IMG/VR virus record: IMGVR_UViG_3300011947_000002
Location: 1-64,000 of that record
Length of the DNA: 64,000 nucleotides
Source: a virus
Taxonomy: Duplodnaviria; Heunggongvirae; Uroviricota; Caudoviricetes
Strand: one strand, 5' to 3'
Both the position numbers and the translations under genes were made by a program. This document shows positions 55,594 to 56,364 of this stretch, one piece after another (position 1 is the stretch's first letter; every line of letters starts with the position of its first letter). Under the pieces are notes generated by a model. It had not been told where the DNA came from. It saw only the letters and a program-made list of their open reading frames with translations, and did no database searches.

Positions 55594-56364
55594 TCATTTT
55601 ATAGTAATATTTATATCATTTACATAGGCAATAACATTATCAGTGCTTTTATTAAATTTATTATATAATTTCTCAATTTCAACCTTGTTGCCATCAATAT
55701 CTAAAATTGTATCACCAGAAACACAATTCATTTCCTGTTCAATAGCCGTCGAACTCATAGATTCACACATGGTGTCATACCACTTCTGATCACGTTCAGG
55801 ATTTTCATACCACTTCACATCATATGGAACATAAGCACTACGACCATCTTCAGCTTCAACCCACATTTTGTAAAAATAATTCATTCCTAATGGTGTACTG
55901 GTAATAATTACTTTGGTCTTGTCCGATGAGGAAATAGTCGGGAAAACAGATTCATAGAATGCTTCTACGTTTGGAATAAATGCAATTTCATCAATATATA
56001 AACAATTTCTTATTAAAATCAATAACTTATCTTTACCATCCGTTATAAAGAACCTATTTCCATTAAACACATGGAGAATATCATATACTGATTTAGATAT
56101 CGTTTTTGAAATATTAGTTATTATCTTATTACCATCTTGTGTATAAACACTATCACCCACCTTTAATGTTGATGATTTAACGTATTCATTTGGACTGATG
56201 TATATTTCGTGGTCAGGGGTAACTGTGATAGAAGTATTTTCAATCATTAATTCCAATGTATCATGATTTGATGCTGTTTTTGTCACTCCAACAAAATCAG
56301 AAAATCCTGAATCTGTTAGAATCTTGAATCTACCATTATTTCTAGCAAAGTGTTTATCACTCAT
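55594..56364 (-). CDS. terminase large subunit fragment: split-intein C-half (IntC2) + Walker B/ATPase-core extein + split-intein N-half (IntN3)
   Basis: Extein CLYIDEIAFIPNVEAFYESVFPTISSSDKTKVIITSTPLGMNYFYKMWVEAEDGRSAYVPYDVKWYENPERDQKWYDTMCESMSSTAIEQEMN aligns with T4 gp17 [66 protein letters not shown]...SSLAQFRQEHT. It is preceded by the 120-aa Hint C-half (ITVTPDHEIYI block B ... VYDILHVFNGNRFF ... LILIRN|C) and followed by CVSGDTILDIDGNKVEIEKLY... then a stop. Confidence 0.8.
   Translation of the reverse strand: MSDKHFARNNGRFKILTDSGFSDFVGVTKTASNHDTLELMIENTSITVTPDHEIYISPNEYVKSSTLKVGDSVYTQDGNKIITNISKTISKSVYDILHVFNGNRFFITDGKDKLLILIRNCLYIDEIAFIPNVEAFYESVFPTISSSDKTKVIITSTPLGMNYFYKMWVEAEDGRSAYVPYDVKWYENPERDQKWYDTMCESMSSTAIEQEMNCVSGDTILDIDGNKVEIEKLYNKFNKSTDNVIAYVNDINITIK
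55597..55725 (-). other. IntN3: 43-aa N-terminal split-intein fragment CVSGDTILDIDGNKVEIEKLYNKFNKSTDNVIAYVNDINITIK
   Basis: Canonical block A (C-V-x-G-D-T-x-L/V-x-x-x-D-G). From memory it closely resembles the published AceL-TerL IntN (CVYGDTMVETEDGKIKIEDLYKRLA). Confidence 0.75.
55726..56004 (-). other. TerL extein segment 3 (93 aa; Walker B LYIDE + TSTP coupling motif region)
   Basis: See alignment to T4 gp17 residues ~251-345. Confidence 0.75.
56005..56364 (-). other. IntC2: 120-aa C-terminal half of an atypical split intein (ends ...LILIRN, +1 Cys)
   Basis: Block B TSITVTPDHEIYI, SPNEYVKSSTLKVGDSVYTQDG, block F-like SVYDILHVFNGNRFFITDG. Terminal Asn with unusual penultimate Arg. No block A. 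Confidence 0.7.

Follow-up and report, generated by a model that had tools for sequence, protein, structure and literature searches.

A probable N-fragment of an atypically split intein at the AceL-type site of an apparently dispersed phage terminase large subunit

The window analysed here is a stretch of 64,000 nucleotides, positions 1 to 64,000 of IMG/VR virus record IMGVR_UViG_3300011947_000002, and derives from a metagenome contig of 78,349 bp from the Joint Genome Institute (JGI). At 55597..55725 on the minus strand it encodes a 43-residue peptide, IntN3, which is very probably the short N-fragment of a naturally and atypically split class-1 intein at the QExx↓C(E/K)F(L/Q)GS site of a T4-type terminase large subunit (TerL; an arrow marks a splice junction throughout). 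Judged from the sequence, three related atypical split inteins divide this TerL among at least four genes, of which a pair lies in the window, in scrambled order. We refer to these two genes as frag3 (55594..56364) and frag2 (52979..53719), number the inteins 1, 2 and 3 in TerL order and denote their N- and C-fragments IntN and IntC.

The segment 55594..55746 (minus strand) translates to AIEQEMN↓CVSGDTILDIDGNKVEIEKLYNKFNKSTDNVIAYVNDINITIK followed by a stop, so that 55597..55725 is exactly a 43-codon, Cys-initial peptide that runs from Cys1 to the last residue and is terminated by the stop codon at 55594..55596. The position given for IntN3 in a preliminary description of this DNA is thereby borne out, with the cysteine placed directly after the TerL residues ...AIEQEMN. 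The peptide forms the C-terminus (residues 214–256) of the 256-residue open reading frame (ORF) 55594..56364, in which residues 1–120 are IntC2 and residues 121–213 are the third extein segment of TerL. The parts of frag3 are as follows.

56005..56364, minus strand: IntC2, the 120-residue C-fragment of split intein 2, ending at the junction LILIRN↓C (best PDB match CatC, 6DSL_B; hidden Markov model of C-halves)
55726..56004, minus strand: TerL extein segment 3 (CLYIDEIAF...AIEQEMN), carrying Walker B and the ATPase motifs that follow it (Pfam Terminase_6N, PHROG 2)
55597..55725, minus strand: IntN3, the putative 43-residue N-fragment of split intein 3 (translation, family alignment, similarity to the IntN of CatN and of loci L004 and L128, ratio of non-synonymous to synonymous substitution, dN/dS, below 1 among relatives)
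55594..55596, minus strand: the stop codon that closes frag3 directly after IntN3 and marks the split point (translation)

Residues 1–25 of IntN3 constitute a core with block A, a β-hairpin and an LY motif, and residues 26–43 a tail, NKSTDNVIAYVNDINITIK, that is conserved in most relatives. Block A, CVSGDTIL, fits the class-1 pattern C-h-x-G-D/E-T-x-h, and the nucleophile Cys1, directly after ...EQEMN, is invariant in all 20 aligned relatives. In the same alignment Thr6 is also invariant, V2, G4, G12, I17, Y21 and K23 are at least 90% conserved, and the consensus of the core reads CV.GDT.I...G...TI..LY.KY. A search of metagenomes for frag3 homologues gave 48 further proteins of 166–282 residues with 40–71% identity over the aligned part; since the same C-terminal piece is present in 20 aligned homologues, IntN3 is not a chance ORF tail. 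In the 25-residue core dN is lower than dS in all divergent pairs, for example 0.25 versus 1.28 against locus L014. The tail of about 18 residues (55597..55650, ..NVIAYVNDINITIK) has the consensus ..[IV][AVI]Y[VF][NQ]DI.., is kept in most members of the lineage and absent from some, and evolves much faster than the core, with dN/dS near or above 1 in several pairs. Two plus-strand ORFs that overlap the region, 55483..55668 and 55643..55789, were discarded as being without support and resembling AT-rich noise.

The natural reference for such a peptide is a small group of terminase inteins. The first atypical terminase split to be described was an intein 'fractured at an unusual point' whose C-part has 122 residues (PMC2677866). 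AceL-TerL, from an Antarctic saline lake, has an IntN of 25 residues, GOS-TerL one of 37 residues that is exchangeable with that of AceL, and Cat, the consensus of the GOS/AceL TerL inteins, one of 30 residues; all three are reported to trans-splice (PMC11766414). Our comparison used PDB entry 6DSL and two natural loci, L004 and L128; the published AceL sequence was not found in searchable literature text. Chain A of 6DSL (CatN) is EFE-ALSGDTMIEILDDDGIIQKISMEDLYQRLA, with the boundary EFE↓ALSGDT..., and chain B (CatC) ends ...YYTNGIVSHA-CE; natural relatives of CatC read MFKLNK...NIISHN↓CEFLGSV.... The N-half of L004 ends ...QQFKVEFE↓CLSGETNLEIMFDDDKLETITMEKLYERM and a stop codon, and is followed by a NUMOD3-type ORF and then an IntC gene; that of L128 ends ...AQFNTEFE↓CVSGDTKITLKDPDTGKIFNVNIEEMVSVSS and a stop codon, followed by a GIY-YIG gene and an IntC gene. 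The C-half begins CEFLGS in both. These loci have the classical 'fractured gene' layout, defined as two halves on one strand and in order with a free-standing homing-endonuclease gene between them (PMC2677866). On the L004 contig (JGI 3300066022, T4-like) nearly every gene, including those for TerL, portal, prohead protease and gp23, is split into short ORFs, which look like sequencing frameshifts rather than biology.

The boundaries in 6DSL (EFE↓), L004 (FKVEFE↓) and L128 (FNTEFE↓), and in many cis-inteins, agree with that of intein 3, and the insertion point and split position of IntN3 are therefore those of the AceL type. The site is the point QExx↓C(E/K)F(L/Q)GS used by the AceL/GOS/Cat-type TerL inteins, as seen from its N side. 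Like these inteins, IntN3 has a T4-type TerL as host, is inserted at ..E-x-x↓C-E/K-F-L/Q-G-S, is split right after block A and the first hairpin, where the family has an IntN of about 25–37 residues and an IntC of more than 100, and is very short, with Cys1 and a core that closes with a hydrophobic-x-x-LY motif. Block A reads CVSGDT in IntN3 and in L128, CLSGDT in Cat and CLSGET in L004. Identities are 14/28 to CatN, 13/28 to L004 and 12/26 to L128. The score against CatN was reached by none of 2000 shuffles, and of 25 N-parts taken from this site only one matches IntN3 better than CatN does. There are also differences. IntN3 has 43 residues compared with 25, 37 and 30 in AceL, GOS and Cat (PMC11766414), its hairpin loop is about five residues shorter, it carries the extra 18-residue tail conserved in most of the lineage and it is only about 50% identical to CatN. 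Moreover, its partner gene is not adjacent, no homing-endonuclease gene lies between the halves and two further split inteins reside in the same TerL.

The conservation of Cys1 and block A, the TerL extein matches and the AceL-type insertion point sustain the proposal, made in the preliminary description, of an atypically short split-intein N-fragment in TerL. That description had further held that IntN3 closely resembles the AceL-TerL IntN. The shared site and the rank of CatN speak for a resemblance; 'closely' is too strong, a phmmer search having missed CatN (see below). The likeness to AceL-type IntN appears to be real but moderate, and not specific. The AceL IntN sequence on which that comparison was based looks sound, since it retrieves CatN from the PDB (E 0.021), and it is probably close to correct.

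The remainder of frag3 identifies the host protein and the neighbouring intein. In its middle part Pfam Terminase_6N is detected at E 1.7e-9 and PHROG 2, terminase large subunit, at E 2.9e-16. Among PDB entries IntC2 comes closest to 'Consensus engineered intein CatC' (6DSL_B, E 2.2e-6), and it matches Pfam PT-HINT and Intein_splicing weakly. IntC2 is the partner of IntN2 and not of IntN3. The second gene, ORF 52979..53719, is built in the same way, from an IntC ending GILSHN↓T through the TerL segment TTVVAAYL...IRGKSVN to CVDVNTLVTVKNKDTGVIEQITINELELRLKHEA and a stop codon, and the IntN2 quoted earlier (CVDVNTLVTVKNKDTG...) is present at its end.

53336..53686, minus strand: IntC1, the C-fragment of split intein 1, ending GILSHN↓T (Pfam Intein_splicing; hidden Markov model A3, E 4.6e-20)
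53084..53335, minus strand: TerL extein segment 2 (TTVVAAYL...IRGKSVN), directly after the P-loop lysine (PHROG 5989 terminase, E 1e-28; alignment to Mendera TerL)
52982..53083, minus strand: IntN2, the 34-residue N-fragment of split intein 2, CVDVNTLVTVKNKDTGVIEQITINELELRLKHEA (ORF translation, comparison of N-parts)

The longest frag2 ORF begins at 53719, overlapping the adjacent LamG gene, and other assemblies call a 235-residue product from Met12 (53686), which is probably the true start. Both IntC1 and IntC2 match model A3, built from 74 AceL-type C-halves (E 4.6e-20 and 3.5e-17, respectively), and both match CatC. These matches show that the AceL-type family, whose IntC is of the type ..YEILTP.GF..F.GI.K....YYTN.I.SHN, is present in this TerL through inteins 1 and 2, which does not establish the family of intein 3. 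With regard to the catalytic residues of intein 2, the His that normally stands in the penultimate position is lacking in the window (56005..56022) and in the alignment of relatives (endings ..IRN↓C, ..IKN↓C, ..VFN↓C), and in several relatives a terminal Gln replaces Asn (..HQ↓C, ..KQ↓C, ..NQ↓C).

The sequence obtained by joining exteins 2 and 3 at the predicted junction aligns in one piece to the uninterrupted TerL of Stenotrophomonas phage Mendera (coverage 99%, identity 58%) and also to the TerL of Mendera's relatives. Continuity of the host protein across the intein 2 junction is thus shown by this alignment. The three insertion points in Mendera TerL are given below; ...AIEQEMN↓ ends exactly before the conserved Cys of the third of them, an agreement that concerns the N side only.

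Intein 1: RQMGK↓TTVVAAIL, in the P-loop
Intein 2: IRGKSVN↓LMYLDEFAF, just before Walker B
Intein 3: RQFEQEFL↓CKFQGSSDTL, between the ATPase and nuclease parts

We distinguish four intein sites in TerL: a, in the P-loop; b, before Walker B; c, after the Walker B Asp-Glu; and d, the AceL site (QExx↓CEF). That sites b and c are separate is evident from TerL proteins with several inteins. Many metagenomic T4-type TerLs carry two to four inteins, cis, split or mixed, at sites a–d (for example P0063, P0064, P0071, P0083, P0087 and P0096), and some of these end in a short IntN, like frag3.

The N-parts for sites a–d were extracted from the TerL intein proteins fetched in this analysis, and their comparison blurs the boundaries between sites. 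IntN2, located before Walker B, has identities of 20/31 and 20/34 to the N-parts of P0126 and P0190, site-d cis-inteins of other phages, and is closer to them than to any extracted N-part from its own site. The preliminary description had called IntN2 distinct from the AceL-type sequence, which is only partly true given the identity of 20/31 to the AceL-site N-part of P0126. Because IntN2 resembles site-d N-parts and IntC1 and IntC2 match the AceL-type model, the inteins at these TerL sites form one family within which the short N-part carries little site- or clade-specific signal, and the pattern suggests that inteins have moved between sites. This AceL-type family is very abundant and cosmopolitan. 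A profile of six AceL-like sequences gave 1183 cluster representatives (50% identity) at E ≤ 1e-3, which include cis and split forms, often several per TerL, and a broader AceL-type profile gave at least 6285 clusters at 90% identity.

Several results weigh against taking IntN3 as half of a functional AceL-type intein. An AlphaFold2 model of frag3 is confident only for IntC2, with predicted local distance difference test (pLDDT) values of 39–58 over IntN3 and below 50 in the tail. Blocks B, F and G, the terminal Asn/Gln and the +1 nucleophile of intein 3 are expected on IntC3, outside the sequence covered. The 64 kb hold only two IntC domains, those of inteins 1 and 2. Neither an ORF for IntC3 with the nuclease nor the TerL N-terminus is present in the 64 kb, in 9.6 kb of left flank (from L006, which has 10.9 kb in common with the window at 99.4% identity) or in 4.4 kb of right flank (from L009), and neither was found within 10 kb of frag3 in three relatives. 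In a phmmer search of the PDB with IntN3 and seven extein residues, CatN was not retrieved at E ≤ 10, and the DNA-polymerase intein 9hth (E 0.15) was the sole match. Compared pairwise, IntN3 scores 61 with CatN and 57 with this unrelated PolB intein, and the mean scores of IntN3 against TerL N-parts are 41.6 for site d, 35.3 for site b and 37.3 for site c.

The search for the partner and for the gene of the TerL N-terminus, frag1, was negative throughout. It comprised tblastn and phmmer of the C-terminal part of Campylobacter phage TerL, CatC, IntC1 and IntC2 against the window; in addition, the window and every lineage locus were translated in six frames and searched with the model of 74 AceL-type C-halves, with queries from the TerL N-terminus and with the N-terminus and nuclease domain of Mendera TerL. 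Contigs of the lineage were not among the best 150 of the 1183 clusters from the AceL-like profile, nor among the best 120 of the at least 6285 from the broader one, and the lineage's NCBI contig JAWVHF010000011.1 did not come up in a scan of genome contigs. The best matches for a partner in the metagenome scan (L048–L051) were rejected as uninterrupted TerLs on high-GC contigs, and candidate P0154 as the classical fractured locus of another phage. A stand-alone 115-residue IntC (..LLSHN↓CAFHGS) with a TerL nuclease gene does occur elsewhere, at 958..2118 of L132 (P0106; Logan SRR22388073, 26.9% GC). The nuclease of P0106 is 44% identical to that of Mendera, and the strand that carries the gene has neither a TerL N-half nor an endonuclease upstream of it. 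It possibly illustrates what an unlinked fourth TerL gene, frag4, may look like, and is not assignable to this lineage.

The phmmer result and the similar scores for other proteins and sites would fit an intein 3 of independent origin, outside the AceL/GOS/Cat family, whose likeness is that of a generic block A and hairpin. The preliminary description had itself allowed that the similarity might be limited to generic block A residues, and the evidence on this point is divided: no shuffle reaches the CatN score, while the PolB intein and the other TerL sites score nearly alike. We regard an independent origin as improbable. Intein 3 shares its insertion point and split position with the AceL type, and CatN comes second among the 25 N-parts; the IntC1 and IntC2 present in this TerL are clearly homologous to the AceL-type family; and in site-d inteins, cis and split, C-parts that fit the AceL profile (E 1e-23 to 1e-46) go together with N-parts of the CV.G[DE]T...LY type.

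The unseen partner, together with a tail of highly variable sequence and length, which some relatives lack and which has the dN/dS values given above, would also be compatible with an IntN3 that no longer splices and serves as a non-covalent docking tag for the ATPase and nuclease parts, or is a decaying remnant. A fragmented phage ribonucleotide reductase assembled without splicing is on record (PMC3045599). Such a loss of function seems very unlikely to us, as 20 relatives with identities as low as 40% all keep Cys1 and Thr6 and have a nearly invariant block A, purifying selection acts on the core and members of the family are reported to be efficient trans-splicers (PMC11766414). That the TerL pieces are dead leftovers of mobile elements, with an intact TerL elsewhere packaging the DNA, might be read from the sight of two of at least four pieces in scrambled order among tail and baseplate genes, and is scarcely credible given intact reading frames, conserved Walker B, ATPase motifs and intein catalytic residues, the same three-gene arrangement in lineage members 45–71% identical, an extein dN of 0.11 versus a dS of about 1.7, and no other TerL-like sequence within the 64 kb or the flanks covered.

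If IntN3 is a splicing N-fragment, the frag3 protein (IntC2–extein 3–IntN3) would be made late in infection with the products of the neighbouring structural genes, and IntN3 would dock onto an IntC3 of about 100–120 residues fused to the nuclease domain. The frag4 gene encoding this partner would lie elsewhere in the genome. The size of this genome must exceed about 210 kb, because a 167,767-bp contig of the same phage in Logan (SRR1748657_374) overlaps only positions 1 to about 21.4 kb of the window; relatives in the lineage sit on contigs of 299,728 bp (JAWVHF010000011.1) and 392,887 bp. In the completed HINT fold an N–S acyl shift at Cys1, trans-thioesterification to Cys+1, Asn cyclisation and an S–N shift would join ...EQEMN to C.F.GS.... 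Inteins 1, at the P-loop site, and 2, before Walker B, would splice the other junctions to give one full-length TerL from at least four gene products. In split-intein circular ligation of peptides and proteins (SICLOPPS), engineered IntC–extein–IntN constructs are used in which the cognate halves cyclise the insert. The same topology is found in frag2 and frag3, with the difference that the halves within each must not react together. We infer that the co-resident inteins do not cross-react, because frag2 and frag3 would otherwise cyclise; inteins 1 and 2, and likewise 2 and 3, should then be orthogonal.

The order on the minus strand is frag3, a LamG gene, frag2 and three large ORFs, the reverse of the TerL order.

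53691..55580, minus strand: LamG-domain structural gene of 629 residues between frag3 and frag2 (Pfam Laminin_G_3; PHROG 31125 over its full length)

Homologues of this gene were found only in Mendera-like phages, and in Mendera the homologue heads an operon of tail/baseplate type about 40 kb from the intact TerL. The frag3–LamG–frag2 block is kept in L002, L012, L014 and every relative examined, down to 45% identity. Other T4-like neighbours in the window are a gp4-like head closure protein, a gp2-like DNA end protector, a gp19-like tail tube, a SegE-type GIY-YIG endonuclease and gp48-, gp53- and gp5-like baseplate proteins; since T4-like structural genes surround frag2 and frag3, the TerL pieces have been dispersed into a late structural operon. 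The SegE-type gene (46150..46644, plus strand; Pfam E 8.8e-33) adjoins the gp19-like tail tube gene, as in Mendera, and is a candidate free-standing homing endonuclease about 6 kb from frag2. The GC content is 28–34% throughout the window (31% overall), and the cumulative GC skew changes direction near 34 kb, the point at which genes go over from the plus to mostly the minus strand. No tRNA genes occur within the 64-kb window. The T4 late-promoter motif TATAAATA shows no enrichment, with 16 occurrences against 23 expected, and none lies upstream of frag3.

This arrangement resembles the fractured genes of phages (PMC2677866) in that a conserved phage enzyme is encoded in pieces that begin or end with split-intein halves, and in the association with GIY-YIG endonucleases, a GIY-YIG-like ORF being located beside frag3 in a variant contig. 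It departs from the fractured-gene layout in two respects. Firstly, what lies downstream of IntN3 is the LamG structural gene and then frag2, an earlier segment of TerL. Secondly, there are at least four pieces, the two visible ones in reversed order and the others more than 10 kb away in the relatives examined.

Among cultured phages, the TerL of the Campylobacter CP81/NCTC12673 group has been described as 'interrupted by an intein and an intron' (PMC3322345). These phages are also T4-related, and their TerL is the best GenBank phage match to frag3 including the IntC (31% identity). The annotated gene, for example the 'terminase large subunit' at 3998..5326 of L001 (Campylobacter phage PT14_12670_16), starts with an IntC-like domain of about 100 residues (MYEVLTPNGFSDF...DFVSHN↓CAFIDK), so that an atypically split intein follows Walker B in cultured phages of Campylobacter. 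That intein is at site c, after the Walker B Asp-Glu, rather than at d or b, and in contrast to the situation expected for intein 3 the nuclease domain is contiguous with the rest. VidaL (PDB 6VGV) and PolB16 OarG (PMC10189870) share with intein 3 a short IntN (15–16 residues in their case), a long IntC and an origin in phage-like metagenome sequence; they differ in host protein and intein family, and VidaL is only a marginal PDB match to IntC2 (E 1).

Contig SRR1748657_1757 is about 98.8% identical to the window in DNA sequence except in one cassette (compare L009 2598..4136 and L129).

56017..57308, no strand assigned: variable cassette that includes almost all of IntC2 and is replaced in SRR1748657_1757

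The break lies about four codons before the IntC2–extein junction. The variant IntC2 ends LLIKQ↓C and has 43% amino-acid identity to that of the window, the two alleles sharing mainly their first 35 or so residues, whereas extein 3 and IntN3 are 100% identical and frag2, including IntN2, is identical. Adjoining frag3 the variant cassette has a 380-residue ORF that matches SegE GIY-YIG weakly (E 3e-5, slightly below the Pfam threshold); the window has a 205-residue ORF (56645..57262) with no family match. Provided that both phages are viable, the same IntN2 serves a pair of IntC2 alleles that differ widely. The swap bears on how far an IntC can change and yet keep its partner and, occurring beside a GIY-YIG-like gene, on the movement of intein halves by homing endonucleases.

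From the resemblance to AceL the preliminary description had suggested a cold or marine lineage and a cultured or assembled genome context. Nothing supports a cold or marine lineage. The closest cultured relatives by TerL and LamG are T4-like phages of Stenotrophomonas, Variovorax, Acidovorax and Xanthomonas, and the intein family is cosmopolitan. Nor does anything point to a cultured genome; the sequence is a JGI metagenome contig, and no near match to the window was found in GenBank phages or IMG/VR. That account was right in kind, an atypical IntN at the AceL/GOS site of TerL, and overstated in degree and ecology.

Taken alone, IntN3 adds a further example to a family that is already known and very abundant, and the finding is a modest one. 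What is new is the greater length of IntN3 with its conserved tail, the unlinked partner, the lack of an intervening endonuclease and its being one of three split inteins in a single protein. We put forward tentatively, as something possible rather than probable, that a lineage of jumbo phages permanently keeps its packaging ATPase–nuclease as four unlinked genes rejoined by three orthogonal, loosely paired split inteins. If this is true, pairing specificity would reside in small elements, for which the conserved N-terminal 30 or so residues of IntC and the 18-residue tail of IntN3 are candidates. Orthogonal split inteins with an IntN short enough to be synthesised, for multi-segment protein ligation, would then be available naturally from this lineage; mutually orthogonal split inteins with short IntN are sought for multi-fragment assembly and labelling (PMC7090010, PMC12707363). 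The context is worth following, in that an essential enzyme would be kept in at least four dispersed pieces, relying on three trans-splicing reactions, in an arrangement that is stable across a diverged lineage.

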